DNA of 64,000 bases from Candidatus Latescibacterota bacterium. GTDB taxonomy: Bacteria; Latescibacterota; UBA2968. The number at the start of each line of letters is the position of its first letter. Position 1 is the first letter of the stretch. The notes under the pieces were generated by a model. That model made no database searches. It was not told the origin of the DNA and worked only from the letters and a program-made list of their open reading frames with translations. Positions 27,223 to 64,000 of this stretch are shown here, piece by piece. The translations under genes were made by a program, and so were the position numbers. The stretch spans positions 1-64,000 of the forward strand of contig OZ240241.1 in the NCBI GenBank assembly GCA_965198115.1, written 5' to 3'.

Positions 27223-27684
27223 CTAACCGGATAAGCAGATCCGACTAATGATTTCTGTCGTTGAAACTCCATCTACTAGGCCAACGGTGACAACGCGTCC
27301 TCCACTGGACTCCACTATTTCACGACCCACAACCTCATGAGGACGGTAATCTCCCCCTTTAGCAAGCACGTCAGGAGCCACCTCTTGTAGGAGGAGTTCA
27401 GGGGTATCCTCCGCAAAGACAACGACGTAATCCACGCTCTCCAAACCCGCCAAGGCGAGTGCTCGATCTTGTTGACCCATTATGGGACGGCCTGGTCCTT
27501 TTAGTCTCCGGACTGACTCATCACTGTTTACCGCGACGATGAGTCTATCTCCAAGACGCTTTGCCTCCTCCAGGTATATGACATGCCCGCTGTGGAGCAG
27601 GTCGAAGCAACCATTTGTGAACACAATCCGATCACCTCTCGAGCGGCAAAACGCCACATCGGTCCTTAGAGACTCGCGACCCAT
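27223..27684 (-). CDS. rfaE2: D-glycero-beta-D-manno-heptose 1-phosphate adenylyltransferase (HldE domain II)
   Basis: [37 protein letters not shown]. Confidence 0.92.
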
Positions 27685-27799
27685 GATCTTAGACCTTAAT
27701 CCAATGACTGCACCTCCCCCGCGCCCATCTGGCTAGTGCTGAAGATTTCGCATCAGAGTCGGGCGAATGCCACCGAGTAGTAGCCACACAAATTTATTT

Positions 27800-29219
27800 G
27801 GCTCTATCCGGGTTTCTCAACGGTGAAACTATAGAATGACAAGGTCATAGATCGTTCCCTACGCTTGGTTGTGTGTGTAGGACAATCAAAGCGAAGGGGG
27901 TGCGACCTATGACCGGGAGCAGATTACTATCGAAACTGCTGAGATTCAAGGGGTTCCGTGTTGTCAGCTGGTGGTTTGAGGGGAGAAGCTGTTTCGTCAT
28001 CGCCGTAAAGCCACATAAGAATGGTTGTTGTTGTCCGGAGTGCGGCCGTCGAGGTAAAATCGTCCGCACAATGCCCCATCCGCGTCGGTGGCGTGACATT
28101 CCGGTGTGCGGGTGGAGGGTCTGGCTTCTCTACCATCCTCGGGAGATTCGGTGTCCTACCCACGGTCGTGTGGTCGAGGAGATTCCGTGGGCGGAGCGGT
28201 TCTCTCGGGTGACGTATCGCTTCGAGTATGCCATGCTGCGCTACTGCCAGACCATGACGCAGAAGGCGGCGTCCGAGTTACTGCGCATCTCTGCCTCGAC
28301 GCTGTCGGATCTCCTTCACCGATCCATCACGCGGCTTCGTGAAGGTCATCGTATCCGAGGGCTCAAAACCATCGGGATCGACGAGATCTCCTACGCCAAG
28401 CGTCACAGGTACGCCACGCTCGTTTACGATCTGGACCGCTCCTGCGTGGTGTGGGTTGGCCGCGGCAGGGCGCGTAAAACGATCGATCGGTTCTTCACAG
28501 AGGCTCTCAGTCCCTACCGGAGATCCAAGATCGAGTGGGCCTGCTGCGACATGAGCGAAGCTTACATCGGAGCCATCCAGGAACACTGTCCGAATGCCAA
28601 GCTGGTCCTCGATCGCTTTCACATCGTCAAGGCTCTCAATGCCGCCGTTGACGAGGTCCGTAAGGACCAGTGGCGTAAAGCTGCCCCGGATGAGCGCAAA
28701 GCCATGAAGGGCCTCCGATGGCTCCTCTACCGGCACTCAGCGACACGCTCCAGAGGGGATACTCGGACACTCAAAGCACTGGAGAAGGCGAACTACCGAA
28801 TCTATAGAGCCTGGAGACTCAAGGACGAGTTCGAGCAGTTCTGGGAATACAAAGCGCCCTGGGCTGCCGAACGCTTCCTGAAATGCTGGACGACGTCCGC
28901 ACTCAGAAGTCGACTTGAACCCCTGCGAAAGTTCGTCAGGACCCTGCGACAGCACTTCTTCGGCGTCCTCGCATTCGTGAACACGCGTCTTACCAACGCC
29001 ATCGCCGAAGGCCTCAACCGAATCGTCCAAATCGTCAAGAACCGAGCCAGCGGATTCCGCACACTCGACGCATTCAACGATATGATCTTCCTTACCGTCG
29101 GAGACATAAACATCCCTGAGCAGATTCCGAAGAGGTTCCGCACACTCTAACCGCGCCCCCATGCCAGGAACCACGGCACCTTCACCCACTTCATCTCGTT
29201 GAGAAATCCGGATATAGCC
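27800..29219 (+). mobile_element. ISL3 family element, intact transposase
   Basis: CPECG zinc finger, IGIDE, CDM, DRFHIV, TNAIAEGLN. Ends ggctctatccgg / ccggatatagcc; 8-bp TSD atttattt. Confidence 0.95.
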
Positions 29220-29327
29220 ATTTATTTGCATATTGCACATATTCTCGAAATTGATTAAGGTCACCTGCCAGAAACGCGAGTCACTAGGGATTTCTCTCGG
29301 AAGAATAGATACCTAAGAAAGAGCAAA

Positions 29328-31663
29328 TTGCAAACAAAAATGCTCGAATTTGCAAGCAGAGGGGCGTCGCTATCTGCTGCCTCTGGAGAGAATCTCAGGG
29401 GGGTGATAGCTGGATTCTCCCAAGAAGAAGGTACTGGTCTTTGGAGATCTCATCCTCGATCACTACGTGTGATTGGTGAAGTAACTCGTGTTTCACCGGA
29501 GGCAGGTGTGCCTGTCTTGGTGTCAGATAGGAAGTGACAACAATGGAGATCGAGTATTGCAGCTTGCGCGGTATCTGTCTTGGATGATGCCACCAATCCC
29601 TATTACCATCCTTTGCTTGCGCACTACTACCAAGACACGTGTGATGGATGGAGGAAAGCATCTTACTGAGAATGACCCTATCAGTCAGGATGCCATGGAG
29701 CGATTGGAAGAAGGTATTGTTGAGATGCTCCGATGAAAGTATAGACGTGATATACGTAGCAGATTACGCGAAGGGCTCGGTGTCTTGTGAATCCACGGAT
29801 CTGGTTCGCCACCTTGGGGCTCAGCTTAAGTGTCCCATTGTGGTGGACCCCAAGGGTGATGATTTTGGCAAGTATCTCCGGCTTACTTCCATCACGCCCA
29901 ATACAGCCGAGGCAATTCAGGCTACGAAATTCGAATGCTCCGATGAACTACAGGCCAGTGCGATTATAGCCAATGAGCTTGGACTCGATTCAGTCTCCTA
30001 ACTCGAGCAGAATTCGGTCAAGTCCCATAGTCAGTTGAAAACTCATCGGGCCCCGTAGTTTGGTCAGGCTCTCTTTTGAGCATTCTGTTCGTTGTCGAGA
30101 TTCAGATCTTTGTTCAGTGCTTGCCTGAGTAGGGGAAGATGTTTGTATCCGCTCACGCGTCGCAGGCGAGGTTCGATGTCGAGGAGTGCGGCAGCCACCC
30201 ATCTGTGTCTCTGGGGAGAGTTGTTCCAGCGTCTGACCTTCCGAGTGAGCTCGCCGGTCATGCTGTTGAGGGCTTCGATGCAGTTGGTGGTTCGGAAGCT
30301 TCGTTTCAAGAATGGGAGCATACCCAGCCGGTGGAGGGTCAGGGTTTCCTCCAGGCCTTCCTCGAGGCTCGTTACGGCAGACTGATTCATCAGCTTCAGT
30401 TCGGGTTTAAGTGATTCGAGTGCGGCCTTTGCCTCCTCGTAGGTGTCGCAGTCATAGGCTTTCTGGAGCTTCCGTCGAACTCTTGGACGTTCCCTCTCCG
30501 GGAGATAGCTGACGACATTCTCGCGCTTGTGCCACTGACAGCGATGCACGCGCACATACCCTTTGAGGGCTTTGGTGACAGCACTGCGGAGTCCCTTTGA
30601 GCCGTCAAGCACAACGAGAAGGCCCTGGTCGTAGCACAGGCCTCTCCGGATGAGGTCCTGGATCAGCTGGCGGCAGATCCGTTCGTTCTCCGTCGCCGAT
30701 TCGACGAAGCCCAGGGGGATCTTCTGGCCGTCCATCGTGACCCCCAGAGCGATCACGATCTCTTCGTCGGCAAAGCTCTTTCCGTCAATGAACAGGGTCA
30801 CGAAGCCGTAGTCGTCGAGGGGACGCTCCTGGAACTGCTTCAGCTTCTTCGCGGTGGCTTTGATGAACCGCCGCGAGACGGAGGACGCTGAGATACCAAA
30901 CGCTTCTGGAACCGATTCGGCACAGGCCTTGTAGTTGCGGCACGAGATCCCCTTGAGAACACGAAGCAACAGCCCCTCGTCCGTCTTCTTGGGCGTCTGT
31001 AGAGCCCGGTATGCAGCCAGGGAAACCTCTGCGTCGGCCTCGACGTCGCGCACCCGGGGAACGTCTAACGGGAGCTTCTGGTCCATCAGATACACGGATC
31101 CCTTCTGGCTTCCCCACCGACGATGCGCCTGCTCCGAACCTTTGCGCGCATACCGAACGCCTGCGAGCTGCTCGACCTCCTGCTGGAGGAGGTCTGCCAC
31201 TGCCTCCAGACCCAACGGGATCAACGCCTGGATCACCGACAAACGCGTCTCCAAATCGATGACATCGCCCTCAACCTTGACTTCACCATCGCCTACAAAT
31301 AGCTTCTCCATCTGGGCTCCTTTCTTACGGGTATACGCTCCTACACGTCTACCCAACGTAAGTTTGGAGCCCTCTAAGTTTCAACTACGATAGGCACAAC
31401 ACCCAGAATTCGGAGCGGCCCTCATACGTTCCAGCGGGAAGTATACAGAGTTCAGCAACGCATGCCCAAAGGTTATAGATGTGACTGGAGCGGGCGATTC
31501 GGCCGGTGCTGCCTTTGCCTTATCGATAGCGTGTTATGCAACTCACGAAGATGCGGCCTTTATTGGCAACACAGCGGGTGGCGTTTCCGCTGCAAAGCCA
31601 GGATGTTCAATCGTAACCGCCGCCGAGTTGGTGGGAAACCTGGGAGGGAGGATCCTGGTTTAG
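29328..31663 (+). pseudogene. rfaE1: Heptose-7-phosphate kinase (HldE domain I, PfkB family): frameshifts, an apparent deletion and an IS256 insertion
   Basis: Across frames: VLVFGDLILDHY, RVSPEAGVPV, TTTKTRV, DYAKG, VDPKG, ITPN..E, LTR, and after the IS, DVTGAGDS. The GGAANV segment is not found. Confidence 0.85.
30016..31403 (-). mobile_element. IS256 type A, intact, inserted in rfaE1
   Basis: Full transposase ORF; both ends present; 8-bp TSD cagaattc. Confidence 0.95.
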
Positions 31664-31690: not shown

Positions 31691-34415
31691 GAGGTCGAGT
31701 CAAGAGGTGTGTAAATAGATCAGGCGGCCAGCTTCTTCCCGGAGTCGATTGTGGTCATAGTTTGGTTGTGCTGTGCATAAACAACGTGTAACAGATGGGG
31801 TGCATTGAGTCGCCGGAAGCGTTTCTCGGCGACCATCAGTGTTCGCCAGATGAGAGCGCTTGCCGCGACGACCTTCTTGTAGCGTTTGGCGGCGTTGGTT
31901 CGTAACCGCACGGATGCAAAGGGGCTCTCGACGATGTTGGTCGTTCTCAGGTGGCGCCAGTGTTCTTCTGGGAAATCGAAGAAGGTGAGCATCCTATCCC
32001 AATCCCGTTCGAGTGTTGCCACCGCCTTCGGGAACTCGTTGCGATATCGTGCGACGAACTGCTTGCGCAGCTTCTCCGCATCCTGACGCGTGCTGGCATA
32101 GGGAATCTGGACGAGCAGTGCACGAGCTTGAGGCTGCTGACGTTTGTGGATCTGGTCCGAGACGTTGAGAATCTTGTGGTTCCAGCACCGCTGCTGACGG
32201 GTGTGCGGCCAGACCTGATCGACGGCAGACCAGATGCCCATATTGCCATCGGCCGCCATCAGAATGGGGTGATCCAAGCCGCGATCCCGTAGGTCTCTAA
32301 GGACAGCCAGCCAGGACTCGGTCGACTCGCGATACCCAGGCACCAGGCCCAGAACCTCTTTGCGGCCGTCACTCATGGCGCCGATCACGACAAGCAGACA
32401 CGCCTTATCTTTCTCAAGTCCGGCTTTGACGTAGATCCCATCGGCCCAGGCATACACGAGCTCACGATCGTCCAGGCGTCGTTCCTGCCAGGTCTGGTAA
32501 TCAACCTCCCATTGACCGCGGAGGCGAGCAATCGACGAGGGGGAGAGCGGAGCCCCATCACCGAGAAGCCCTCGCAGGGCCAACTCGAAGTCGCCCTGAG
32601 ACAGACCGTGGAGATAGAGCTCCGGGAGCAGTTCCCCCACCTCTCTCGTGCGCCGAGCGAACAACGGCAGAATCCTGCTCTCGAAGCGCTCCTCCAAACC
32701 GCGAACACGGGGCCGCTTGATCTGGATCGTGCCGCAAGAGGTCGACAATCGCCGCAGCTTCCCATAGCCGTTGCGATAACCGGATCCTGCATCTACGGCT
32801 TCTTTGCGGCTCTATCCGGGTTTCTCAACGGTGAAACTATAGAATGACAAGGTCATAGATCGTTCCCTACGCTTGGTTGTGTGTGTAGGACAATCAAAGC
32901 GAAGGGGGTGCGACCTATGACCGGGAGCAGATTACTATCGAAACTGCTGAGATTCAAGGGGTTCCGTGTTGTCAGCTGGTGGTTTGAGGGGAGAAGCTGT
33001 TTCGTCATCGCCGTAAAGCCACATAAGAATGGTTGTTGTTGTCCGGAGTGCGGCCGTCGAGGTAAAATCGTCCGCACAATGCCCCATCCGCGTCGGTGGC
33101 GTGACATTCCGGTGTGCGGGTGGAGGGTCTGGCTTCTCTACCATCCTCGGGAGATTCGGTGTCCTACCCACGGTCGTGTGGTCGAGGAGATTCCGTGGGC
33201 GGAGCGGTTCTCTCGGGTGACGTATCGCTTCGAGTATGCCATGCTGCGCTACTGCCAGACCATGACGCAGAAGGCGGCGTCCGAGTTACTGCGCATCTCT
33301 GCCTCGACGCTGTCGGATCTCCTTCACCGATCCATCACGCGGCTTCGTGAAGGTCATCGTATCCGAGGGCTCAAAACCATCGGGATCGACGAGATCTCCT
33401 ACGCCAAGCGTCACAGGTACGCCACGCTCGTTTACGATCTGGACCGCTCCTGCGTGGTGTGGGTTGGCCGCGGCAGGGCGCGTAAAACGATCGATCGGTT
33501 CTTCACAGAGGCTCTCAGTCCCTACCGGAGATCCAAGATCGAGTGGGCCTGCTGCGACATGAGCGAAGCTTACATCGGAGCCATCCAGGAACACTGTCCG
33601 AATGCCAAGCTGGTCCTCGATCGCTTTCACATCGTCAAGGCTCTCAATGCCGCCGTTGACGAGGTCCGTAAGGACCAGTGGCGTAAAGCTGCCCCGGATG
33701 AGCGCAAAGCCATGAAGGGCCTCCGATGGCTCCTCTACCGGCACTCAGCGACACGCTCCAGAGGGGATACTCGGACACTCAAAGCACTGGAGAAGGCGAA
33801 CTACCGAATCTATAGAGCCTGGAGACTCAAGGACGAGTTCGAGCAGTTCTGGGAATACAAAGCGCCCTGGGCTGCCGAACGCTTCCTGAAATGCTGGACG
33901 ACGTCCGCACTCAGAAAGTCGACTTGAACCCCTGCGAAAGTTCGTCAGGACCCTGCGACAGCACTTCTTCGGCGTCCTCGCATTCGTGAACACGCGTCTT
34001 ACCAACGCCATCGCCGAAGGCCTCAACCGAATCGTCCAAATCGTCAAGAACCGAGCCAGCGGATTCCGCACACTCTAACCGCGCCCCCATGCCAGGAACC
34101 ACGGCACCTTCACCCACTTCATCTCGTTGAGAGATCCGGATATAGCCTTCTTTGCGCTCATACCACCCGCGTCCGAGGAACTGGGTCACTTCCTCCTCAA
34201 CGATGGACTGAATGCGAACCTCGATTTCCTTACGCAACCACCCCTCAAGGGTTTCCCACGTCGGCATGGACAACGAGGGGGACTTCGACTTATGTTTTCC
34301 CACGGCGATCCTCCTTCCCACCGGGCCTGTGAACCCGGTATTTCGTGGATATTGTTATCTCACGGGAAGTGTAGGGTCGCCTTTTCTATTTTTCCACACC
34401 TATTGATTGTAGCTC
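31691..34415 (-). mobile_element. IS256 type B variant interrupted by ISL3
   Basis: WADG, AADG, RCWNHK, RTTNIVES. Flanking repeat aaatgt(ga). The 5' part lies at 34148-34415. Confidence 0.88.
32808..34147 (+). mobile_element. ISL3 copy with a +1 frameshift and an 81-bp deletion
   Basis: Same ends as 27800-29219; TSD ttctttgc. Confidence 0.92.
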
Positions 34416-34433: not shown

Positions 34434-36383
34434 ATGTTCCGCAGATTTTTGGAGGGAATCACCTCCAAAGAGCGCAGGTTAACTGTCAGCAGCGAGAACG
34501 TGGAACTACATCCTGGTCAAAACGGCGAGAAACTTGCGCTCATGAAAGCGGGGATAGGAGGAGAGTATGTTCCGGTGAGGCCTGCTGAGGCCAAACTCTT
34601 GCGCCGCGCTCAAGAGAGTGGCGGTGTCAGGGTGTCTGATTTAGTCTACTGGAAGTATAGCGACCTGTGGTGGCTAGTCAGCAAACCTTTTGCCTCTATA
34701 TCGACCGGGATGTTTAGAAGATTCGGGCAGTCCATCCAGCGGTACTTTGACAGAGTGTTGATGGTGAATCGTCTGCTCTTCTATCCGATTAGAAGGATGC
34801 TGAGGTTGGGCCCAAGGGGGAGTTGCTTTGATGCGGTTGTTGTCCTTTGGTCGGGATCAGACTGTTACCAACGGATTGTAAGCATTGGACGAGAGATGGC
34901 GGATTCTCTTAAGGATGAGGGACCACGAGCTTACTTGGTAGCAGATGAAGATGAGAGCTTGATGGTCAGAGATCTCTGTCACCTATATCAAACGCAGAAG
35001 CTTGACATCTTGTTGCAGACATTTGACCAGAAGAACTACAGAGTACTTCTGGTTGTCGACTTTAGACTCTTCTGGCGAACACTTCTTGCTATCGCACGGA
35101 TCAGACTCCGGGGACATAAAGTGTGGATAGCAAGCCTCTGTGCGAGATCCAGCGTATTCTCCTTCTATTTTCGTTTCTCTCCGTGGAATATGTCCGTTGT
35201 GATGGTCGACAGGGCGTTGAGCGCTGTGAAAAACATGATTGTCCGCACATTACTTTGCTTTTGGTCAGCCGGCAGGAAGCGGCAAGGGGGCACTGAGGGC
35301 ATCCTTGTAATAAACACTTGTACTAGTCTAGGCGACACGATCTTGAACATGCGGCTTGTGAAGCATGCGGGTGGAGAGCTTGATGCCAAGCCGTACGTTG
35401 GCGTTTTCGATCCTCGTAGCGAGATGTTATGGAAGGCCGTTCCAAACGTTGAGGTAATTCGATTCGAACGTAGTGGAACGGGCAAGGTGCTCTCAACCCT
35501 TATCAAGAACATTCGGACACTCGTGTCCCTGAGGAATCAAGTACGCTTTACTCATGCAGTCAATGCGTACGGCCATAGAGAAGACATGATGATGATAGAC
35601 TACTTGCTATGGTCCTCGGGTGCCCCGATTCGCGTGGGTGTCTGCTCACCTCCGTATCTCTTTGGATCGTTCTCAAGTTTACTTACACACCAAGTTAGCT
35701 TGGATTCCTACATAAAGTCTGGCAGATATGAATCTGTACTCTGTAGGCTCCATGAGAGCATTCTTGCTTGCCTGACTGGTGGGGGGCACCGCTCTGTTGA
35801 TCTCGACCTTCCCGAATTGATAATACCTGACCAGGCGGCTGCAAAGCGCGCTGAGGCCGCTATTCGGAAGTCGATCTCGACCGGCCGTGAGTTCATCCTG
35901 CTTGCCCCGACTTCCAAGAGAAACAAGATGATTCCACCATTGATAGCGAAGAAATTGGTTTCGCGCATCGTTGAGAGACTAGGAAGAGATGTTCTTGTGA
36001 CCTGTACGCAGAACGAACTGTGGCAGGTTAGGTCTCTACGGTCTCCTAACGTCCACATCATTGGTCCCCTTGATATTTACCAGCTCGCAGAGACGTGCCG
36101 GCGTGCATCTTGCGTTCTGGCTATTGACAATGGCTCCATGCACCTTGCGTGCTGGGCAGGTGCAAGAGTAGTAGGGATTTTCGGGCCGACGGATCCTCTG
36201 CTGTGGCTTCCACATAGAAGGTCCGGGGTTGAAGTAGTGCGCACGTCAGTTTGTGAACCTTGTGGAAACGTCTTCAGTTGTCATCTTGATGATGCTTCTG
36301 AGGTGAGAAGCTGCCTAAACACGCTGGACCCTGACGACGTGGTTGATGCTATCATCAGAACAGAAATCTGCACTAATATGTGA
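34434..36383 (+). CDS. GT9 (heptosyltransferase-like) glycosyltransferase with a ~290-aa N-terminal extension
   Basis: SLGDTIL, AIDNGSMHLA, GIFGPTDP..W.P, CEPC...C...SCL. RBS ggagg. Confidence 0.85.
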   Translation: MFRRFLEGITSKERRLTVSSENVELHPGQNGEKLALMKAGIGGEYVPVRPAEAKLLRRAQESGGVRVSDLVYWKYSDLWWLVSKPFASISTGMFRRFGQSIQRYFDRVLMVNRLLFYPIRRMLRLGPRGSCFDAVVVLWSGSDCYQRIVSIGREMADSLKDEGPRAYLVADEDESLMVRDLCHLYQTQKLDILLQTFDQKNYRVLLVVDFRLFWRTLLAIARIRLRGHKVWIASLCARSSVFSFYFRFSPWNMSVVMVDRALSAVKNMIVRTLLCFWSAGRKRQGGTEGILVINTCTSLGDTILNMRLVKHAGGELDAKPYVGVFDPRSEMLWKAVPNVEVIRFERSGTGKVLSTLIKNIRTLVSLRNQVRFTHAVNAYGHREDMMMIDYLLWSSGAPIRVGVCSPPYLFGSFSSLLTHQVSLDSYIKSGRYESVLCRLHESILACLTGGGHRSVDLDLPELIIPDQAAAKRAEAAIRKSISTGREFILLAPTSKRNKMIPPLIAKKLVSRIVERLGRDVLVTCTQNELWQVRSLRSPNVHIIGPLDIYQLAETCRRASCVLAIDNGSMHLACWAGARVVGIFGPTDPLLWLPHRRSGVEVVRTSVCEPCGNVFSCHLDDASEVRSCLNTLDPDDVVDAIIRTEICTNM

Positions 36384-36502
36384 GGTTGAATGGATTTCAT
36401 CTGGTTAAGAGTTGTCCAGTCAGTGGCACAAGCGCGAGAACGTCGTCAGCTACCTCCCGGAGAGGGAACGTCCAAGAGTTCGACGGAAGCTTCAGAAAGC
36501 CT

Positions 36503-37487: not shown

Positions 37488-37702
37488 AAGCCTATGACTG
37501 CGACACCTACGAGGAGGCAAAGGCCGCACTCGAATCACTTAAACCCGAACTGAAGCTGATGAATCAGTCTGCCGTGGCAAGCCTCGAGGAAGGACTGGAG
37601 GAAACCCTGACCCTCCACCGGCTGGGGATGCTCCCGTTCTTGAAGCGAGCTTCCGAACCACCAACTGCATCGAAGCCCTCAACAGCATGACCGGCGACCT
37701 CA

Positions 37703-44690: not shown

Positions 44691-44710
44691 TTGCCCGGAC
44701 GTATATTTTC

Positions 44711-52103: not shown

Positions 52104-52124
52104 GCGACCTAAGCATGAGGTCGC
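52104..52124 (+). terminator. Hairpin between precursor and maturase (possible attenuator or mRNA stabiliser)
   Basis: gcgacct-aagcatg-aggtcgc; the U-tract is weak. Confidence 0.3.
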
Positions 52125-52240
52125 TTCGTGTGAGGGTCATCCGTGCGGCGTAAGAACTCAGACGAATCTCCACTCTTGAAATGAGAGTAGTTCCCCGTTC
52201 GATCAGGACAATCAAATCAGTCGTGTAGGAGGACTCTACG

Positions 52241-53743: not shown

Positions 53744-53807
53744 GGCTGAACTGATTTCGGACTTTATGAAGCTTCTGACGCCGATCTCTTTTCTGGGAAG
53801 CTGCGAA

Positions 53808-55679
53808 ATGAAATTGCTGGGTCTGAGGTTTGTGCTTGTAGTATGGATCACTACTGCTTGCACATACGACGTTACCGCAGCAGAACCGTACGACCTAAGC
53901 TACAGCGTATTCGCCCAGGACTCCGTGCTGTACAGATGGAACACGTCGGAAGGAGTGGTAGATGGTATGCTGGTCCGCCACAGATTCCCTCCCTTGGAAC
54001 TCTGGGAGACATACCTATCGGAGGGGCTAGAAGCTCAGGAATACACGGAGAACGTGGTCTTCGCCTCGCGGGATTCCTCTGTTTATGGATGTGGCTTTGG
54101 AATAGACTATCCAGTCCTCATACCCCGGAACGTACATCCGTACCTGACGGCACGCATATACGCTGATGGGCTTGGGCCCATTAAAGTCTGGATCCAGCTC
54201 CAGAACGATTGGATTTCCGTTCCCAAGGTAATCTCCGCCAAGGGCTACGACAAGATTGAGATAGGCCTAGGTAAACTGATAGGTTCTAGTAGGAAAATTT
54301 CCGGCGTGAAGATGATCGCTGAACGAAGGAGCTTGAATGGCAGACTCATCGTTGGGGCTGTTCAGGTGACGACGAGGAGATTCCTAAAATGGCGATTTGG
54401 GGATAGGAGACCCGTTCCTATCAGGGCCCCATTGGGTGGCAGAGGCCCATTCGAAAGCTGGCCTCAGTGGGTGGGGTCTTTCGGTGATGGACCGGCGTTG
54501 AGATTTGGTGGTGGAACTGTCCCGGCGATGGCCAACCTGATGTCTGATCTGTTAAGAAAGTATTCTCGATACAGCATGAAGGACGTTAGTGTGAGCCAGG
54601 TGCTACGCCAACACGAGCAGCTTCTGCGTCCAGATATTGGGATCATAGAGTATTTAGATGGGCTGGAAGAGATCCTCGTACCACTCGGTGATACTCATTT
54701 TCGAGTTAATAGACCGACCTACAGACACAGTACAACTCAACTCAATGATGTTGTGAAGTTCTATAGAATTGACGGACGTGTTATCGTTTCCGCTGTCTTC
54801 AGTCCTCGTCTTCAAAAGGTGATCTCGGAAGGCGACGAAGTCACTGCCGTTGACGAAATGCCCATTGAGGATCACATAACGACAAGAACTATGTCCCTGG
54901 CAGGATCTACGGATTGGATCCGGGACCGGATCGTGATCGAGCGGCTGCTGACCAAGGAGGACTCTGTCGCAACTACAAGGGTCACCTTTCGGCGACCAGA
55001 TGGACAAGAGTATTCGATTGAACACCATACGAGCGATAGTCTGATGAGAGTCATCCCAAAGAATTTTCTAAAGGGAAGGTTCCACTACAAAGAGTTGGGA
55101 GAGTTCGCATACATACGTATAGGCACCTGGAGCGAAAAGACCTGGCCGTTCTTCTACTCCTACATTGACCGACTGAAAGAGAGCAAGGGGCTAATTCTTG
55201 ATCTGCGGAGTAATGGTGGAGGAGACCTTTCCTTCTGTAGAATCGCTTCGTGCTTTGTAGACAAGCCATCAGTGATTTTCTCCGTTTGCAACATCGAAGG
55301 TGAGGGGGTCGAATCCATTCTTTTAAGACCAGATCCCTTCTTCTTCTATCGTGGCCCGGTTGCTGTCCTAGTGGATACAAGAACCGGCTGTGCTTCAGAG
55401 TTATTCGTGAGTGCGATCAAAAGGTATCACAAGGACACCATAGTAGTCGGTCAGAGCCCGACAAGTGGCGCAGTCGGTTTCATCAGAACGATATCGCTTC
55501 CGGGAGGGAACGAGATCACCTTTCCTGAACCCGTTTTGGACGCCTACAGTCGTGATCTCGAAGGAGTTGGTGTACAACCAGATATGAAAGCCAGCTTCGA
55601 ATCATACCGGGACCTTGCACCTTATGACGATTCGCTTCTCGATCTTGCTATAGAGGCTCTTGCTCATCGTGCTATGTGA
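53808..55679 (+). CDS. S41-family peptidase-like secreted protein with a PDZ-like domain
   Basis: Signal-like N-terminus, GDTH, GDEVTAVD, YIRI, LILDLRSNGGG, TGCASE, EGVGVQPD. Start at 53808 or 53766. Confidence 0.85.
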   Translation: MKLLGLRFVLVVWITTACTYDVTAAEPYDLSYSVFAQDSVLYRWNTSEGVVDGMLVRHRFPPLELWETYLSEGLEAQEYTENVVFASRDSSVYGCGFGIDYPVLIPRNVHPYLTARIYADGLGPIKVWIQLQNDWISVPKVISAKGYDKIEIGLGKLIGSSRKISGVKMIAERRSLNGRLIVGAVQVTTRRFLKWRFGDRRPVPIRAPLGGRGPFESWPQWVGSFGDGPALRFGGGTVPAMANLMSDLLRKYSRYSMKDVSVSQVLRQHEQLLRPDIGIIEYLDGLEEILVPLGDTHFRVNRPTYRHSTTQLNDVVKFYRIDGRVIVSAVFSPRLQKVISEGDEVTAVDEMPIEDHITTRTMSLAGSTDWIRDRIVIERLLTKEDSVATTRVTFRRPDGQEYSIEHHTSDSLMRVIPKNFLKGRFHYKELGEFAYIRIGTWSEKTWPFFYSYIDRLKESKGLILDLRSNGGGDLSFCRIASCFVDKPSVIFSVCNIEGEGVESILLRPDPFFFYRGPVAVLVDTRTGCASELFVSAIKRYHKDTIVVGQSPTSGAVGFIRTISLPGGNEITFPEPVLDAYSRDLEGVGVQPDMKASFESYRDLAPYDDSLLDLAIEALAHRAM

Positions 55680-55736: not shown

Positions 55737-56969
55737 GTGAGGTTTCTGTTTTGCCCTATGGCAACATATGGATTTGTCTATCCGGCCATCGGAATCGCGC
55801 TAGAACTGAGTCGAAGGGGGCATGACGTTGCTTTCGTGACCGATAAGTCGTTCGACCACGTTCTAGCAGGTGAGGGGTTGCGAAGGATTCCAAACGGACG
55901 AAGTGATAGAAGAAGCTTCATTATCGGGGACTGGGGCGAACCTGTCAGTGTCTGTTCTCAGGTTCGTCACATTCGATTCGCACTTGATGAATTTCGACCG
56001 GACGCGTGTGTGTCGTCGATTTTCTGTTTCGGAGCGCTGATAGCCAGGAAGTTATACGACCTACCCACGGCGGTGATAGGGCTTTGTACCTATATGTTTG
56101 CCCACCCGGATGACCTCAGGACCCAAAGCGAGATTACTCCCTCTACGCGATCACTACAGCTCTCTGATGGATTCAGAGAAACCTACAATACTACCGGTCG
56201 CCTGTTTAAGATACCGGAAATGGGGTTGTGCGAATTTATTGAAGAGATGCCGGTACTTGGAGACCTGTTTCTGCTTCAGAATCTTGATGATCTCATCGAA
56301 GATTCAGATAGGTTGCCGGGACGAGTGCATCTAGTAGGACCGTGTGGCTGGGATTCGCCAACCACAGATTCGGAGCTTGTCGACTGGATCAGGCAAGGAC
56401 CGGCAGCGGGAGATCCGATTATCTACGCGCAGCCGGGGGCACTCTTCGGGGCAAATTCGTTCTGGCCGGTCCTGACCAAGGCGCTGGAAGACGAAAGTGT
56501 GAGAGTAGTGGCCTCGGTTGGTAGGATGACGGGGAACGGTGATTACTCAAGCCTGCCTTCAAACTACTTCGTACGCGCACACGTGCCCCACCGACTCGTA
56601 CTCCAGGTTGCAGATGGCGTTGTAACAGAGGGGCACACCAGTATAGTTCTCGCAGCACTCTCAGCAGGAGTGCCTTTGATGCTCATTCCTCACGGCGGCG
56701 AGGAGTTTGATTGCGCTGAAATGTGTATCCGCGCGGGTGTCTGTGTCGGGATCAACCATGAGGAGTTGTCTCGTAACAATATGAAGCTGAAGCTGCGTGA
56801 TCTCCTTCAGAGGACTGATATCCGAGAGCGTTCTACGAGGATTAAAACACTCATCCAAAATAACAACGGCCACAGTCGCGCAACAGACTTGATCGAAATT
56901 TTAGGCATGGAAAGGAGACAGATCCTCCGCTCTTCGCTTTCGGCAAAGAATGTGCATTTGTCACCTTAG
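55737..56969 (+). CDS. GT1 (MGT/EryCIII-like) glycosyltransferase
   Basis: G..YP.IGIALELSRRGHDVAFVT, HLVGP, VPH..VL..AD.VVT.G, ALSAGVPL. Confidence 0.88.
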   Translation: MRFLFCPMATYGFVYPAIGIALELSRRGHDVAFVTDKSFDHVLAGEGLRRIPNGRSDRRSFIIGDWGEPVSVCSQVRHIRFALDEFRPDACVSSIFCFGALIARKLYDLPTAVIGLCTYMFAHPDDLRTQSEITPSTRSLQLSDGFRETYNTTGRLFKIPEMGLCEFIEEMPVLGDLFLLQNLDDLIEDSDRLPGRVHLVGPCGWDSPTTDSELVDWIRQGPAAGDPIIYAQPGALFGANSFWPVLTKALEDESVRVVASVGRMTGNGDYSSLPSNYFVRAHVPHRLVLQVADGVVTEGHTSIVLAALSAGVPLMLIPHGGEEFDCAEMCIRAGVCVGINHEELSRNNMKLKLRDLLQRTDIRERSTRIKTLIQNNNGHSRATDLIEILGMERRQILRSSLSAKNVHLSP

Positions 56970-57093: not shown

Positions 57094-58513
57094 GGCTATA
57101 TCCGGATCTCTCAACGAGATGAAGTGGGTGAAGGTGCCGTGGTTCCTGGCATGGGGGCGCGGTTAGAGTGTGCGGAACCTCTTCGGAATCTGCTCAGGGA
57201 TGTTTATGTCTCCGACGGTAAGGAAGATCATATCGTTGAATGCGTCGAGTGTGCGGAATCCGCTGGCTCGGTTCTTGACGATTTGGACGATTCGGTTGAG
57301 GCCTTCGGCGATGGCGTTGGTAAGACGCGTGTTCACGAATGCGAGGACGCCGAAGAAGTGCTGTCGCAGGGTCCTGACGAACTTTCGCAGGGGTTCAAGT
57401 CGACTTCTGAGTGCGGACGTCGTCCAGCATTTCAGGAAGCGTTCGGCAGCCCAGGGCGCTTTGTATTCCCAGAACTGCTCGAACTCGTCCTTGAGTCTCC
57501 AGGCTCTATAGATTCGGTAGTTCGCCTTCTCCAGTGCTTCGAGTGTCCGAGTATCCCCTCTGGAGCGTGTCGCTGAGTGCCGGTAGAGGAGCCATCGGAG
57601 GCCCTTCATGGCTTTGCGCTCATCCGGGGCAGCTTTACGCCACTGGTCCTTACGGACCTCGTCAACGGCGGCATTGAGAGCCTTGACGATGTGAAAGCGA
57701 TCGAGGACCAGCTTGGCATTCGGACAGTGTTCCTGGATGGCTCCGATGTAAGCTTCGCTCATGTCGCAGCAGGCCCACTCGATCTTGGATCTCCGGTAGG
57801 GACTGAGAGCCTCTGTGAAGAACTGATCGATCGTTTTACGCGCCCTGCCGCGGCCAACCCACACCACGCAGGAGCGGTCCAGATCGTAAACGAGCGTGGC
57901 GTACCTGTGACGCTTGGCGTAGGAGATCTCGTCGATCCCGATGGTTTTGAGCCCTCGGATACGATGACCTTCACGAAGCCGCGTGATGGATCGGTGAAGG
58001 AGATCCGACAGCGTCGAGGCAGAGATGCGCAGTAACTCGGACGCCGCCTTCTGCGTCATGGTCTGGCAGTAGCGCAGCATGGCATACTCGAAGCGATACG
58101 TCACCCGAGAGAACCGCTCCGCCCACGGAATCTCCTCGACCACACGACCGTGGGTAGGACACCGAATCTCCCGAGGATGGTAGAGAAGCCAGACCCTCCA
58201 CCCGCACACCGGAATGTCACGCCACCGACGCGGATGGGGCATTGTGCGGACGATTTTACCTCGACGGCCGCACTCCGGACAACAACAACCATTCTTATGG
58301 GGCTTTACGGCGATGACGAAGCAGCTTCTCCCCTCAAACCACCAGCTGACAACACGGAACCCCTTGAATCTCAGCAGTTTCGATAGTAATCTGCTCCCGG
58401 TCATAGGTCGCACCCCCTTCGCTTTGATTGTCCTACACACACAACCAAGCGTAGGGAACGATCTATGACCTTGTCATTCTATAGTTTCACCGTTGAGAAA
58501 CCCGGATAGAGCC
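57094..58513 (-). mobile_element. ISL3 copy, intact transposase
   Basis: TSD aaaattga. Confidence 0.95.
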
Positions 58514-58600: not shown

Positions 58601-60319
58601 TTGGAGGAAGATCAGACAGGTCTGATGAAGATGAGGCGAATGGCCGCGGGGGTTTACCCACACGCAATTGGCTTAGGAATCGTCTCAATAGTCGGTGTCT
58701 CGGTTGGGATCGCCAAGCCCGTGGTTTTTTCTAGAGTAATAGACCAGGGGCTTGTCGAAAACGACTGGGATACGACGTTTCGTCTTACGAAGTACCTTGG
58801 TCTAGTAGGTCTCTTTGGACTACTGACATCCTCCATCCACCGGATCCTCGCAAGTTACATTTCGAATAGAATCGTTGAGAATATGAGGAACTGGCTAGTA
58901 GCCAGAGTCTTCGTTCTACAGTATGAACACTTCGTCCAAACTCCCAGAGGGGAAATCCTGGCCACAATCGAGGACGATTGTGCCAACATAAGGGAATTCT
59001 CAGTTTCTACTCTGCAGTCAGCGATGAGAAGCTTCCTTAGCTTTGTCGCGGCCATATGCTATGTCGGGTGGGTGCAATGGAAGATGCTATTGGCTGGAGC
59101 CCTTGCCGTACCATTTATGGCCATCTGCATGAGATTGTTCCGAAGGGTTGTATATGAGTGCGGATCACAAGTGGCTGAAGCAAGAGCTGTGGCTAAGAAC
59201 TCTCTGGTGAATACTGTAGAGAGCATGAGTTCATTAAGGCAATTGGGCTTATCCGATTGGTCGCGTGATGTTATTCGAGGTGATCTTGGGAAGCTTCGGA
59301 GGAGTAGTATCCGTGAGCAAGTATGGGAGAGCCTGACCGAACTGTCCTCGGGTTCTGTCTCATTGTTTAGCTATTTGGTGATTCTGGGATACGGTGGGTT
59401 GCTGGTTTCAACTAATGAGATAGGAATAGGGCATCTACTTGCCTTCCTAACGATGAGGCAAAGTTTTTTTGCGCCATTGGATTTCGTTGATCGTGTCTAC
59501 AAAGGTTACTTCAAGGCCAAACGTTCTCGCGAACGGATTGATTCACTGTCCAGCCAGCCACTCGAGACCGGTTTCCACGGTGGGGATAGCATCCCCGACG
59601 ATTTCCATCCGCATTCCCTATCCATCGAAGACGTATCATTCTCGTTCGGAGACAAGGCTCTGCTATGCTCGGCCAATGCGACATTCACCACAGGGTGGAA
59701 CGAACTAAGAGGACCCAATGGATCAGGCAAGACAACACTCCTAGGAATCATTCTCAAAGTCCGTAACCCTCAACAGGGCCGGATCTTTGTGGACGGTTAC
59801 AATGTTGCGAACTTCAACAACCGCAGCTGGCGAAGCCACATTTCTGTTGTTGCACAGGAGCCCTTCATATTTCAAGGGACACTGAGGGAGAACCTTAGAC
59901 TTTTCGATGAGAACATTGATGACTCTATGATTGATAGCATGCTTGAGCAGGTAGGTCTTCGAAAGTGGTGCGAAGAGAGGGGGCTCGACACAGAACTATC
60001 CCAAGGCGGAAGCGAAATTTCAGGAGGACTTAAGCAACGTTTGGCGATTGCCAGAGCTCTTCTGAGAAGCTCCGCCGTCTACATTTTCGATGAGCCAGTT
60101 TCCCAGGTCGACTTGCTTACGAAAGGAGACTTGCTTCGCGTGATGAAGAGATACACTCGCGGCGCAATTGTGATAGTTATATCCCATAGCGATCTTAGAG
60201 ATGTAGCGGACCGGATCTTTCACGTGAAGGATGGCCGAGTCAAAGGCGAAGAGGTTAAGCCCGAAGCTCTGTGTGAGCTAGATCCGTCGGTGCAAGGCGT
60301 TGTCGGACATCCATCCTAA
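58601..60319 (+). CDS. ABC exporter, fused TMD-ATPase (no C39 peptidase domain)
   Basis: TM helices, GPNGSGKTT, VAQEP, ISGGLKQRLAIARAL, IFDEP, ISH. Confidence 0.92.
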   Translation: MEEDQTGLMKMRRMAAGVYPHAIGLGIVSIVGVSVGIAKPVVFSRVIDQGLVENDWDTTFRLTKYLGLVGLFGLLTSSIHRILASYISNRIVENMRNWLVARVFVLQYEHFVQTPRGEILATIEDDCANIREFSVSTLQSAMRSFLSFVAAICYVGWVQWKMLLAGALAVPFMAICMRLFRRVVYECGSQVAEARAVAKNSLVNTVESMSSLRQLGLSDWSRDVIRGDLGKLRRSSIREQVWESLTELSSGSVSLFSYLVILGYGGLLVSTNEIGIGHLLAFLTMRQSFFAPLDFVDRVYKGYFKAKRSRERIDSLSSQPLETGFHGGDSIPDDFHPHSLSIEDVSFSFGDKALLCSANATFTTGWNELRGPNGSGKTTLLGIILKVRNPQQGRIFVDGYNVANFNNRSWRSHISVVAQEPFIFQGTLRENLRLFDENIDDSMIDSMLEQVGLRKWCEERGLDTELSQGGSEISGGLKQRLAIARALLRSSAVYIFDEPVSQVDLLTKGDLLRVMKRYTRGAIVIVISHSDLRDVADRIFHVKDGRVKGEEVKPEALCELDPSVQGVVGHPS

Positions 60320-60338
60320 AGGAACCGTGGAGGATAGG

Positions 60339-61175
60339 ATGGAAAACACATTAGATGTTGTTAGACGGCCAGACGTTTCGCCGGAAACATACTTGAAACT
60401 ATATGGGAAACCGAACAAACCATTTGTCATTGCGGATGGCGCAGAGGAATGGAAGGCCCGATCAACCTGGAACATGAGATTCTTTGAAGAGCGTTATGGA
60501 GATGTCAGACTGCAGGTGACACGGATAGCGAGAGGGAGAACGGAATCCGCTGGTGTAAAGACCATAGCTGAATACGCAGACTACCTCCGCACTCAGAACC
60601 ATGAAAAGGAGCCACTCTATCTCCGAGATTGGGTCCTGGAAGAGAAGTACCCTGAGCTTCTTTCTCACATCTCCGTGCCTTCCTATCTATGCAACTGGCT
60701 TGACCGTATCCCGATTAGCGGCAGTCGTAGACACTTCTGGCGAGGTTGGAAAGGTTGGATTTTCATCGGCCCAAAAGGAACTGGAACTGAGCTCCATACG
60801 GACGTTGTTAAATCCTCGGCCTGGCTGGCCCTCATAAGTGGACAAAAGGAGTGGGTATTAACCCCACCTAACGAACACGATCCAGCCACGTTTGCTAAAG
60901 TCGACCTGCTAAATCCTGACTATGAAGCCTATCCCTTCCTTCGGAATTCGAAGAGGATCTGCTACACCCAGCGTCCAGGAGAACTATTAGTCGTCCCGAG
61001 TGGATGGTGGCATCAGGTCTGTAACTCTGATGCCACCATCTCTGTTTCTGGGAACTTCATAAATGAATCCAACATACACTTCTTCTGTAAGGACTTGCTT
61101 GAGAACGGATCACTTGCTGAACTCAGAGACTACTCATGCTACATTCCAGAGATAGTCCCCTTTTTAGCATCCTAG
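60339..61175 (+). CDS. JmjC/cupin-like Fe(II)/2-oxoglutarate oxygenase (paralogue of 41060-41890)
   Basis: LYLRDW, WIFIGPKGT, HTD, GQKEW, PGELLVVPSGWWHQV. ATG at 60339 after ggagg. Confidence 0.92.
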   Translation: MENTLDVVRRPDVSPETYLKLYGKPNKPFVIADGAEEWKARSTWNMRFFEERYGDVRLQVTRIARGRTESAGVKTIAEYADYLRTQNHEKEPLYLRDWVLEEKYPELLSHISVPSYLCNWLDRIPISGSRRHFWRGWKGWIFIGPKGTGTELHTDVVKSSAWLALISGQKEWVLTPPNEHDPATFAKVDLLNPDYEAYPFLRNSKRICYTQRPGELLVVPSGWWHQVCNSDATISVSGNFINESNIHFFCKDLLENGSLAELRDYSCYIPEIVPFLAS

Positions 61176-61176
61176 G

Positions 61177-62549
61177 GAGCTATAATCAAAAGGTGTGGAA
61201 AAGAGAAAGGGCGACCCTACCCTTCCCGTGAGATAGTTGATTCACACAAAACCGGGTGAGAGGCCCGGTTGGGAAGGAGGATCGCCGTGAAGGAACATAC
61301 GCATAGAGCCCCATTGAAGTCCATGCCGACGTGGGAGACGGTTGACGATTGGATCCGTGAAGAGATCCAGGGCCGGTTCCAGTCCATTCTGGAGGAGGAG
61401 GCGACCGCGTTCTTGGGCCGGTCGTGGTATGAGCGCCGAGCCGAGGTTGATAGCTCCAGGGGCTACAGGAACGGCTACGGCAAGCCCCGGCGTCTCTCGA
61501 CGAGCTGCGGAACGATCAAGGTCCGGCGTCCCCGGGTTCGTGGTCTGGAAGAGCGGTTTGAAAGCCGCATCCTCCCCCTGTTCGCCCGGAGAACCAGGGC
61601 CATTGGAGATCTGCTTCCCGACCTTTATCTCCACGGTCTCTCCCAGGGCGACTTCGAGTTGTCTTTGCGTGCGCTGCTCGGTGATGGCGCGCCGCTTTCG
61701 CCGACCTCGATCGCTCGTCTTCGAGGGAAGTGGGAGGTCGACTTCCAGGACTGGAAAGAAAGGCGTCTGGATAATCGCGAACTGGTCTACGCCTGGGCTG
61801 ATGGCATCTACGTCAAAGCCGGGCTCGAGCGCGAGAAGGCGTGTCTGCTGGTCGTGATCGGCGCGATGAGCGACGGCAGCAAGGAGATCCTGGCGATAGA
61901 ACCCGGTTATCGAGAGTCTACAGAATCCTGGCTCACGGTGCTCCGGGATCTCCGGGATCGCGGGCTCGAACATCCTGTCCTGATCGCCGCGGACGGGAAT
62001 ATGGGCATCTGGGCGGCCGTTGATCAGGTCTGGCCAGAGAGCCGGCAACAACGGTGCTGGAACCACAAGATCCTCAACGTGCTCGACAAGGTCGCCAAGC
62101 GTGCACAGGCTGAAGCCCGCGCACTGCTCGTCCAGATCCCCTATGCCGGCACGAAAAAGGAGGCCGAGAAGCTCCGGAAACGCTTTGCCGCACGGTATCG
62201 CTCACAGTTCCCTGCCGCCGTGGAGACGCTCGAAAGAGACTGGGATCGGATGGTCACGTTCTACGACTTCCCGAAGGAACACTGGAAACACCTGAGAACC
62301 ACGAACGTCGTCGAGAGCCCCTTTGCTTCCGTTCGGCTTCGCACAAACGCCACCAGGCGATTCAAGAAAGTCAGGAACGCCACGACTCTCATCTGGCGTA
62401 CGCTCAAGGTCGCAGAGAGCCGATTCAGGAAACTCACCGCGCCACACTTGCTACAACAAGTCTACGATCAGAAACACTCAACCGGACCGCAGGTCGAAGC
62501 CGGGAAGATGGCCGCCTGATTTCTTTTACACACCTATTGACCTGAGCTC
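61177..62549 (+). mobile_element. IS256 type B, intact
   Basis: 416-aa ORF; IR gagct...agctc; TSD atcctagg, which includes the JmjC stop codon. Confidence 0.95.
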
Positions 62550-62705
62550 ATCCTAGGATCGATCTGAGCCTACTGGATTCCGAAAGATCTCTACGTGAAG
62601 CGTCGATTGCATTTGTGTCCCACACGAGTCCAGAATCGGTTTCGTTCAGAGTCGAGGGCCAACGAGTTGGCGAGCATGTTGACCTTCTAACTCGAGAGTA
62701 TATTA

Positions 62706-64000
62706 GTGAGTGTCAAAGTAGCTGTCATAGACAGTGGGCTGTGCGAGTCCCATCCCAAGTTAAAAGGGGTACGCGTCACGGACCGCGTGTCGGTAGGAAG
62801 CGACGGGATTTCTCGAGGATGTACCAGCGATGTTTGGGGACACGGTACGGCCTGCACGCAGATAATTCACAGTGTTCTGGATAGAGAGCTTCGTAGGAGT
62901 TGTGAGTTCAAGATCGTAAAGGTTTTTGATCGCCAACTGGTGGTTAGTCAGGACATCCTTCTAAAAGCCCTCCTGTGGTGTATGGATTCGGGCGTAGACG
63001 TAATTAGTGTGAGTATCGGCGTTCGGGCGTCCTCGCCTCCCCAAGAGCTTGTGGACCTCTGTCTTGAGGCACATTCGAAAGGCATCATACTAGTAGCGCC
63101 AGACCACAACGAAGGGGATGGCCCATGCTACCCAGCGTCACTTTCGCATGTCTTTGGCGTTACAGGCGGAGTTTTGAGATCACGGCGTGAGTTTGGTGTT
63201 AACGAGGAGAGCGATATTGAGTTCGTTGGTCGGGGAACCAATCAACGTGTGGCGTGGATCAATGACTCCTACATCTTCGACAGCGGGACAAGCTTTGCCT
63301 CTGCGCAACTAGCAGGAATAGTGTGCAATGTAAGAGCGCAGTTTCCAGAATCTGATCCGTCAGAATTGAAAGCACACCTCATGTCAATTGGACTTAGAGG
63401 TGTGCCTATTACCAGCAGGTTTGTCTCTGCCGGAACAGGCACCGGCCGCTGGGCGCCCCAGGGGACAGACACGATTGAAGAGGTGGTCGAGCGGAATTTT
63501 TCACCCAAAAGATTCAGCTGGATGCGACGCGCTGCTCTCTATCCAGTATGTAACAAAGAATTTCACGCGATCGAGCACTTCAGTAGGCAATGCCAGTTTG
63601 AGCTTGTGGAAATTCTGGACTTTCCAAAGGGAGTGATTTCCCACCGAGATATTGAGATCGATGGAAGGAAATACACGAAAAAGTGGCGAGTAAGTGATAT
63701 TGAAAGGTCGTTTGATACCCTCATTGTTGGATATCCATACGAGACGCCCTTTGGCGCTGATCACAAGGCCTATAAAGACATCTTAGACCAGGCCTGGCAT
63801 ACGGAGTGCAACTTCTTTTGTCTTAGCGGCGATGTAGAGAAACAATTGCAAAAGGAAAGGGACAGCCTCGGTAAGGTGTCGTCACAGATTTACTGTCCAA
63901 GGGTTGACACAGCTGACCTTCAACGACTTGCGTGTCTCCAAAGTGAAGGTGAGACAACAAGACCGGTTCTCGCAGTAGTGGGGACAAATGAAAAGCAGGG
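62706..64000 (+). CDS. S8 (subtilisin-like) peptidase fused to a DUF1611-like P-loop region; partial, runs off the right edge
   Basis: Hand translation from GTG 62706 is open to the edge: VAVIDSG, GHGTAC, SGTSFAS (D/H/S triad), then AALYP..NKE...FDTLIVGY...PVLAVVGTNEKQG. Confidence 0.85.
   Translation, partial: MSVKVAVIDSGLCESHPKLKGVRVTDRVSVGSDGISRGCTSDVWGHGTACTQIIHSVLDRELRRSCEFKIVKVFDRQLVVSQDILLKALLWCMDSGVDVISVSIGVRASSPPQELVDLCLEAHSKGIILVAPDHNEGDGPCYPASLSHVFGVTGGVLRSRREFGVNEESDIEFVGRGTNQRVAWINDSYIFDSGTSFASAQLAGIVCNVRAQFPESDPSELKAHLMSIGLRGVPITSRFVSAGTGTGRWAPQGTDTIEEVVERNFSPKRFSWMRRAALYPVCNKEFHAIEHFSRQCQFELVEILDFPKGVISHRDIEIDGRKYTKKWRVSDIERSFDTLIVGYPYETPFGADHKAYKDILDQAWHTECNFFCLSGDVEKQLQKERDSLGKVSSQIYCPRVDTADLQRLACLQSEGETTRPVLAVVGTNEKQ

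Follow-up and report, generated by a model that had tools for sequence, protein, structure and literature searches.

The 64,000-nucleotide window analysed here (positions 1-64000 of G000:C1; the source genome, G000, is a single contig of 8.43 Mb at 59.1% GC, and the other G and L numbers below denote the genomes and loci compared with it) carries, from position 27223 past its right edge, what its genes identify as a biosynthetic cluster for a peptide that is made by the ribosome and modified after translation (RiPP). We assign the cluster to the DD(I/V)LF orphan family, known from the flm cluster of Flagellimonas meridianipacifica and the ohk cluster of Ohtaekwangia koreensis, because its precursor motif, its arginase and its gene set match. 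What appears to be new is the host, a bacterium of the Latescibacterota and so outside the Bacteroidetes, and a set of sugar- and carbamoyl-transfer genes seen in no relative examined. On balance we hypothesize, with slightly more belief than doubt, that this is a DD(I/V)LF cluster with added tailoring genes, the product of which is likely cross-linked and ornithine-containing and probably receives hydroxyl, sugar and O-carbamoyl groups ahead of its export.

The family was described in 2025 and, in the available text of that paper (PMC12703449), is defined by precursors with DD(I/V)LF at the C-terminus and an arginase alongside; its 57 precursors all came from Bacteroidetes, and the final product is given as unknown. 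In the same text, conversion of arginine to ornithine is shown for the arginases FlmR and OhkR, and the tables for both clusters list a radical S-adenosylmethionine (rSAM) enzyme, an arginase, S41 and S8 peptidases, a cupin/JmjC protein, an ABC exporter and a permease, with an acyl carrier protein (ACP)-like gene in flm as well. The rSAM/SPASM, S41, S8, cupin and ABC exporter genes shared within the family are all present in the window. A sequence-only reading of this DNA had proposed a RiPP cluster of a probably undescribed class. The cluster itself is real, with a precursor beside rSAM, S41, S8 and ABC genes, but the motif, arginase and gene set match the family as described in the available text, so that the class is not a new one. 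Neither a characterised DD(I/V)LF product nor this enzyme combination was found in the literature searched, outside which most subscription papers lay.

The putative precursor is a 47-aa open reading frame (ORF) on the plus strand (51802-51945), preceded by AAGGAG and ending in DDILF, with cysteines at 23, 27, 28 and 32 and arginines at 29, 33 and 35 in the core region. The pattern [DE][DE][IVL]LF-stop occurs at three places in the 8.4-Mb genome, one of which is this ORF, 295 bp before the rSAM gene. Scored with a C-terminal matrix built from 13 other precursors, it ranks first among 43,388 small ORFs (20.7 versus 14.5 bits). As pointers to possible Cys thioethers of the ranthipeptide or sactipeptide kind, one conserved cysteine of the precursors is followed by acidic residues, and the family neighbourhood of the rSAM enzyme includes PapB, CefB and TIGR04463, all matched below cut-off. 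A promoter scan of 51690-52300 returned 0 sites.

Conversion of arginine to ornithine would be the best-supported modification, and it was missed by the sequence-only reading. That reading had the cluster continuing past the edge, with the genes there outside its view. Extension to the right along G000:C1 yielded the end of the last gene, a QhpE-like S8 protease that has D-H-S and is fused to a domain resembling DUF1611/TIGR04066 (62706-64613, ending past the window edge), followed by an acyl-carrier-like gene that keeps Ser58 and is the counterpart of FlmJ (64549-64866), a UPF0489 peptide arginase (PF12640; 64882-65760) and, after debris of insertion sequences (IS), a BtrH-like ORF (68280-69389) 27% identical to a BtrH_N-like gene of the G106 cluster, all on the plus strand. 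The arginase has all six metal ligands and the motifs EEH(N/H)EAF, DxHxD and LDIDLDYFS, the third of which ends in Ala rather than Cys.

The remaining core genes fall within the window. The rSAM/SPASM maturase (52241-53743, plus) is closest to FlmE/OhkG but divergent; it keeps CxxxCxxC and the SPASM cysteines and has two motifs in common with the FlmE/OhkG-like group. No relatives of it were found in viral contigs. It is followed by an S41 peptidase (53691-55679, plus) with a hydrophobic N-terminal stretch and a likely start at 53766 or 53808. An ABC exporter without a peptidase domain (58601-60319, plus), a MacB/FtsX-type ABC permease that is the counterpart of flm orf2 and OhkJ (46346-48727, plus) and two JmjC oxygenases complete the set. 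JmjC 1 (41060-41917, minus) has HxD...H and is 35% identical to JmjC 2 (60300-61175, plus), the counterpart of FlmI and OhkL.

Among 168 genomes of the phylum, four match the arginase family (E 0.001) and nine the rSAM family (E 1e-30). Related clusters were recovered from G129, G106 and G037, which together with G000 all belong to one class. The precursors of G129 and G106 end in DILF, and G106 is without an arginase; in G037 the arginase gene is broken by an IS and no precursor was found. The G037 cluster (L026:979-7901) also holds a tryptophan-halogenase-like fusion and a methyltransferase, and its rSAM 5' end and precursor are missing near an IS. In G129 a full arginase stands beside a precursor devoid of arginine (L022:13602-13760, L023:178-1092), and the close G106 has an arginine-free precursor and no arginase. 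Across 80 metagenome arginase loci and four genome loci, the rSAM, S41 and S8 core recurs in L053, L055, L058, L063, L004 and L005, with the S41 gene only in L054. At L055:8700-9571, four longer Cys-rich precursors ending in the tail variant ELLF lie beside arginase, S41, rSAM and S8 genes. The 401 sampled genomes of the family of G169 gave two arginase matches, neither additional to the loci compared.

Several results weigh against our assignment and against the proposed product. Searched with a full-length profile of the 13 precursors, the candidate ranks only sixth (E 5.2), and under default scoring it falls outside the top eight. The best of 64 NCBIfam families for the rSAM enzyme is indeed NF052473 (FlmE/OhkG), but at 220 bits against a cut-off of 500, and its place in the FlmE/OhkG-like clade has supports of 79/73 on a long branch. 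The arginase scores 312 bits against the NF052474 (FlmR/OhkR) cut-off of 350; those of related clusters likewise fall short (331, 297 and 333 bits, for example). Given the arginine-free G129 precursor beside an arginase, the arginase role may not be general. Profiles of the GT9-fold and GT1-subfamily glycosyltransferases (GT) and of the carbamoyltransferase did match the controls and matched none of ten related loci (at least L055 and L063 hold one and the same cluster, and the majority are cut 10 kb from the arginase), and these three genes are in neither published cluster, flm nor ohk, in the available text of PMC12703449. The co-occurrence of the left-hand genes with the rSAM and precursor genes, the lack of which the sequence-only reading had named as refuting it, was thus absent from all ten, most of them truncated. 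Finally, the carbamoyltransferase is transcribed apart from the core, pointing toward JmjC 1. Accessory genes do vary between clusters, however: G037 has a halogenase and a methyltransferase, G129 and G106 have BtrH-like genes, and ohk has an LPLAT gene. Absence elsewhere therefore does not show that the extras are foreign to this cluster.

The NodU/CmcH-family carbamoyltransferase (39350-40996, plus) belongs to the BlmD clade. It is 48% identical to BlmD over 539 aa and groups with it at a support of 100, apart from six paralogues of the same genome, in a tree whose ingroup rows were the top matches. Identity to BlmD and to two further bleomycin-family proteins, probably TlmD and ZbmD, runs from 46 to 49%. 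It is the only BlmD-clade gene in the 168 phylum genomes, and searches found no BlmD-clade gene on plasmids (best 34.8%) and 0 matches at E 1e-100 in the 401 sampled genomes of the G169 family. Only 63 bp, free of any IS, separate it from JmjC 1, and both are on one short-read contig. BlmD carbamoylates glycosylated bleomycin, according to the accessible part of a review. Genomic context was readable for two further BlmD-clade genes: in G638 the gene stands beside three glycosyltransferases and a non-ribosomal peptide synthetase (NRPS), and in G633 directly behind a JmjC gene. The full G638 locus (L143:7-10957) runs from the NRPS through three glycosyltransferases and the BlmD-clade carbamoyltransferase to a PLOD-type GT and four methyltransferases.

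The GT1 enzyme (MGT/YjiC-like; 55737-56969, plus) is encoded within the operon, between the S41 and exporter genes, and represents a small subfamily with 69 relatives at E 1e-30. Its sole relative in the 167 other phylum genomes (G087, 38% identity) follows an S41 gene in a different cluster with an rSAM enzyme and a Cys-rich peptide, a context that would be the best evidence for a GT1 of this kind working on peptides. The G087 cluster (L136:15504-20000 and L137:1-6713) is a separate, RiPP-like one with an rSAM/SPASM gene and a 97-aa Cys/Asp-rich precursor; its further genes are two S41 peptidases, the GT1, a daptide-type membrane metalloprotease and a GT4, which makes it a candidate for a glycosylated RiPP. 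Hydroxylation, glycosylation and carbamoylation of the window peptide are reasonable inferences, the latter two because the operon includes the GT1 gene and the core is joined natively to that of the carbamoyltransferase.

The sequence itself shows the precursor motif, the gene set, intact catalytic motifs and a native run of genes from carbamoyltransferase to arginase; beyond this we propose the following steps, in order of falling support. Like FlmR and OhkR, the arginase would convert Arg29, Arg33 and Arg35 to ornithine (-42 Da each). The rSAM/SPASM enzyme would form thioethers from the four cysteines to nearby Asp or Glu residues (-2 Da each). The two JmjC enzymes would hydroxylate side chains, with ornithine the likeliest target by the precedent of BipG, for which the available text of PMC12707348 gives gamma-hydroxylation of ornithine after arginase action. 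The GT1 would place a sugar on the new hydroxyl, and the BlmD-clade enzyme would add a carbamoyl group to a hydroxyl of that sugar (+43 Da). The QhpE-like S8 domain would remove the leader near Cys23, the ABC transporter would then export the peptide, and the S41 protease would trim the acidic DDILF tail outside the cytoplasm. Lowest in rank, and lacking direct support, is a possible acylation by the ACP-like, DUF1611 and BtrH-like proteins. The most likely order of events would be rSAM, arginase, JmjC, GT1, carbamoylation, S8, export and S41.

An acyltransferase role for the DUF1611 part is a guess from its ACP-like and BtrH-like neighbours; no relative with a solved structure and no usable paper on its activity was found. 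Scores of the cluster for families of the clostridial Ccp system are low, with 44 of 200 bits for TIGR04066 and 63 of 500 bits for TIGR04068, both below the curated cut-offs. A second S8/DUF1611 pair, split and accompanied by a BtrH-like ORF, lies beside an ISL3 element at about 3.221-3.224 Mb of G000:C1 (L138:10837-13816), with no rSAM gene in the 20 kb covered.

How many of the extra genes belong to the pathway depends on the structure of the locus, about half of which is mobile DNA. We count 14 IS elements or pieces in 27223-64000 (five ISL3, eight IS256-type and one fragment of another type), where about 12 had been reported; together they make up 49.6% of the span. Two structural claims of the sequence-only reading, namely the gene order and orientation from rfaE2 (27223-27684, minus) through S8/DUF1611 (starting at 62706), together with the families assigned, and a block richer in AT than its surroundings, were both reproduced: the IS-free remainder of 18.5 kb has 49.8% GC, and 0 of 454 same-size genome windows, which retain their IS content, are at or below 50.5%. 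Excision of the IS elements by their target-site duplications (TSDs) worked for nine of the ten primary insertions, eight with clean TSDs and one (48800-50193) with an imperfect TSD. It failed for the tenth (36419-39330, between the GT9 and carbamoyltransferase genes), which is debris of a truncated IS256, the fragment of another IS type and an inserted IS256; it has no TSD, its start lies within an IS256, and none of 49 matching IS ends supplied a partner flank. DNA has therefore been lost or rearranged at this point. Because of this junction the region is two blocks: rfaE2, a dead rfaE1 and GT9 on the left, and on the right the genes from carbamoyltransferase to arginase, which are natively contiguous and in which gaps without an IS are shorter than 300 bp. 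Unique stretches show 0 differences to short-read contigs, so the breaks are not long-read errors (the contigs come from the same study and are thus not independent of the source). No empty-site alleles were listed in the short-read contigs of two runs (X1, X3), both from that one study.

The other elements are an ISL3 at 27801-29219 (plus; 9-bp TSD), an IS256-type at 31691-34415 (minus; 8-bp TSD) with a nested, rearranged ISL3 (32809-34147), and a compound at 41930-46129 of an IS256-type with nested IS256 (41930-44690) and an ISL3 (44711-46129), with TSDs on all. Upstream of the precursor, at 48800-51686, the IS256 with the imperfect TSD is joined by an ISL3 (50267-51686, 8-bp TSD). An intergenic ISL3 follows at 57094-58513 (minus; 8-bp TSD), and an IS256-type at 61177-62549 (plus; 8-bp TSD) takes in the stop codon of JmjC 2. 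Genome-wide, the IS expansion is extreme, with about 221 full ISL3 copies and 127 and 30 full copies of two IS256 types.

The left block begins with an intact RfaE2/HldC-like sugar-1-phosphate nucleotidyltransferase (27223-27684, minus; GC at third codon positions (GC3) 0.49) that scores 200 bits against the TIGR02199 cut-off of 181.5. The rfaE1/HldA-like kinase next to it, read earlier as a gene, is a pseudogene (29400-31663, plus, start approximate) with an IS256 inside it (30016-31403, 8-bp TSD); after excision it still lies in three frames with internal stops, and one short-read contig confirms the letters of 29175-30042. Once 31691-34415 is excised, about 40 nt separate the stop of rfaE1 from the start of GT9 on the same strand. 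GT9 (34434-36383, plus; 649 aa, PF01075) is a divergent GT9-fold glycosyltransferase: some 270 N-terminal residues match nothing, the only match at E <1e-30 among 1.84 billion proteins is GT9 itself, and the best non-self phmmer matches are restricted to the C-terminal part, whose predicted structure resembles WaaC/WaaF. Its N-terminal 289 aa were found in one of the 168 phylum genomes, its own. In a preprint, as far as its text was available, an HldE-type adenylyltransferase is called homologous to BlmC, and the accessible part of the review has BlmC making bleomycin sugars. HldE-like genes need not mean heptose, because BlmC, which is HldE-like, serves hexoses. It is probable that one and the same island brought in GT9 and the HldE-like genes; their branch, which has lost its kinase, may once have added a second sugar.

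These observations leave room for a tentative alternative, less probable than our proposal though stronger than the others, in which only the core, the GT1 and the JmjC enzymes act on the peptide. The HldE halves and GT9, perhaps along with the carbamoyltransferase, would then form a sugar-tailoring cassette of their own, for a surface glycan or as the remnant of another natural-product cluster, brought alongside by IS-driven deletion. The missing TSD at the GT9-carbamoyltransferase junction is consistent with this, as are the absence of these genes from all ten related loci, the dead rfaE1 beside an intact core, and the closest folds of GT9, which are lipopolysaccharide (LPS) heptosyltransferases. 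However, GC3 is the same on both sides of the junction (0.49-0.55 for each of the 13 genes measured in the cluster, those of the left block among them, versus 0.69-0.75 in three paralogues), the carbamoyltransferase is close to JmjC 1 and no IS parts the two, close homologues of the LPS type are lacking for GT9, and the bleomycin cluster, as far as its accessible description goes, likewise combines HldE-like and BlmD-like genes.

It is also conceivable, if rather unlikely, that the carbamoyltransferase acts on the peptide itself, either at a JmjC-made hydroxyl, like CgnI in crocagin biosynthesis, or at the amine of ornithine, which would yield citrulline. In crocagin, carbamoylation follows hydroxylation, and clusters related to it have a glycosyltransferase in place of the carbamoyltransferase (PMC10070186, available text); the JmjC gene directly preceding the BlmD-clade gene in G633 would fit as well. 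Among the proteins compared, the characterised close relatives are nevertheless sugar enzymes of the bleomycin family.

An equally low probability attaches to the whole cluster being a silent or decaying relic of a genome under massive IS expansion. Half of the span is IS, two elements lie between permease and precursor, two more split the operon, and rfaE1 is already lost. Against this, full-length frames persist in the remaining 14 genes of the stretch that rfaE2 and the arginase bound, all catalytic motifs checked are present, and IS elements can themselves supply promoters. Genes also seem to be spared by the insertions here to a greater degree than in the genome at large: 0 of nine TSD-flanked primary insertions interrupt an intact cluster gene (one of the nine is within dead rfaE1), whereas genome-wide long ORFs take 82 of 262 TSD-flanked copies, and 334 of 500 sites picked at random. 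As evidence of selection this is weak, at p of about 0.035 and with a partly circular definition of 'intact'.

A bolder extension of our proposal, which we consider quite doubtful, would have the GT1 and a leader-recognising GT9 bearing a RiPP recognition element (RRE) build a disaccharide, possibly with heptose, on hydroxy-ornithine, with the BlmD-clade carbamate as its cap: a bleomycin-type sugar module on a thioether-cross-linked RiPP. Residues 23-82 of GT9 are possibly RRE-like, with three strands and then three helices, the succession typical of RREs, modelled at a pLDDT of about 40-68. Alignment of the N-terminus to RRE profiles with hhalign does not rise above shuffles (14 of 100 score as well), Pfam and the Atlas gave no RRE match there, and a fold search with its single-sequence model (pLDDT 49) reached a best Z of 3.6 with no RRE among the matches. 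A complex prediction of GT9 1-290 with the precursor scored 0.01, which counts neither for nor against. If true, this would be a RiPP glycopeptide type without a match in the literature searched, and a GT9 acting on a peptide precursor. The earlier version, in which GT9 heptosylates the peptide with cluster-made ADP-heptose, is very improbable and finds no support here: rfaE2 is above its cut-off, GT9 has the fold, rfaE1 and GT9 were formerly adjacent on one strand and the genome has weak GmhA-like (107 bits, cut-off 209) and HldA-like kinase (132 bits, cut-off 345) matches elsewhere, but the cluster kinase is dead, the GT9 link is unproven, no GmhA or HldA above cut-off exists in the genome, HldE-like proteins such as BlmC also serve non-heptose sugars, and no heptosylated RiPP was found in the literature searched.

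Returning to the DD(I/V)LF proposal, the closest known systems are flm and ohk, which in the available text of PMC12703449 share with the window a DDILF precursor with Cys and Arg, a UPF0489 arginase, rSAM/SPASM and S41 genes, an S8 protease (about 635 aa in flm), a cupin/JmjC protein, an ACP-like gene, an ABC exporter and a MacB-type permease. Here, in contrast, the host is not one of the Bacteroidetes, there is one precursor with four cysteines rather than two or three with two, the GT1, BlmD-clade carbamoyltransferase, GT9 and HldE halves are added, no holo-ACP synthase or LPLAT gene was seen, and the rSAM enzyme and arginase score below NCBIfam cut-offs. The sugar module of bleomycin, tallysomycin and zorbamycin (BlmC, BlmD, BlmE) resembles the cluster in its carbamoyltransferase and, as far as accessible descriptions go, in the HldE-like BlmC; BlmE is probably GT9-like. 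The scaffold here is ribosomal, however, rather than NRPS-polyketide synthase, and the HldE-like function is split, with a dead kinase. The biphenomycin pathway likewise has a UPF0489 arginase (BipC), then JmjC ornithine hydroxylation (BipG), and an rSAM cross-link, but it differs in its B12-dependent biaryl coupling, MNIO, TldD protease, lack of glycosylation and unrelated precursor (PMC12707348, available text). Crocagin is a RiPP hydroxylated by a 2-oxoglutarate oxygenase and then carbamoylated, with relatives that carry glycosyltransferases; its core is an aromatic tripeptide, and no rSAM enzyme or arginase appears in the available text of PMC10070186. A clostridial Cys-rich peptide system (TIGR04066/04068/04069; SacP23 cluster, PMC10731318) has an rSAM enzyme, a TIGR04066-like domain, an acyl-carrier-like protein, a subtilase and an ABC transporter in common with the window, whereas here the scores are far below cut-off, S8 and the TIGR04066-like domain are fused, and arginase, S41 and the DDILF tail are present.

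The available text of PMC12703449 leaves the roles of the rSAM, JmjC, ACP-like and DUF1611 proteins open, and the locus offers one short precursor with a compact enzyme set. It would extend the DD(I/V)LF family outside the Bacteroidetes and add to it a RiPP-associated GT1 subfamily and a BlmD-clade carbamoyltransferase, extras known from one genome in which part of the sugar branch has decayed. Glycosylated RiPPs are described as very rare (PMC10070186, available text), and a peptide glycosyltransferase and carbamoyltransferase pair would serve peptide engineering.

Elsewhere, two rSAM/SPASM genes and a small S8 protease in a low-GC block of G069 (L043:2349-11016) are probably another RiPP cluster. 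In the window itself, 616-11939 is a defence-island-like run with a DUF4007 protein and its large unannotated neighbour, a cysteine desulfurase, a DndB-family protein and an SNF2 helicase, and 16700-17736 is a tandem-repeat ORF, ankyrin-like by eye, that is split over two frames.

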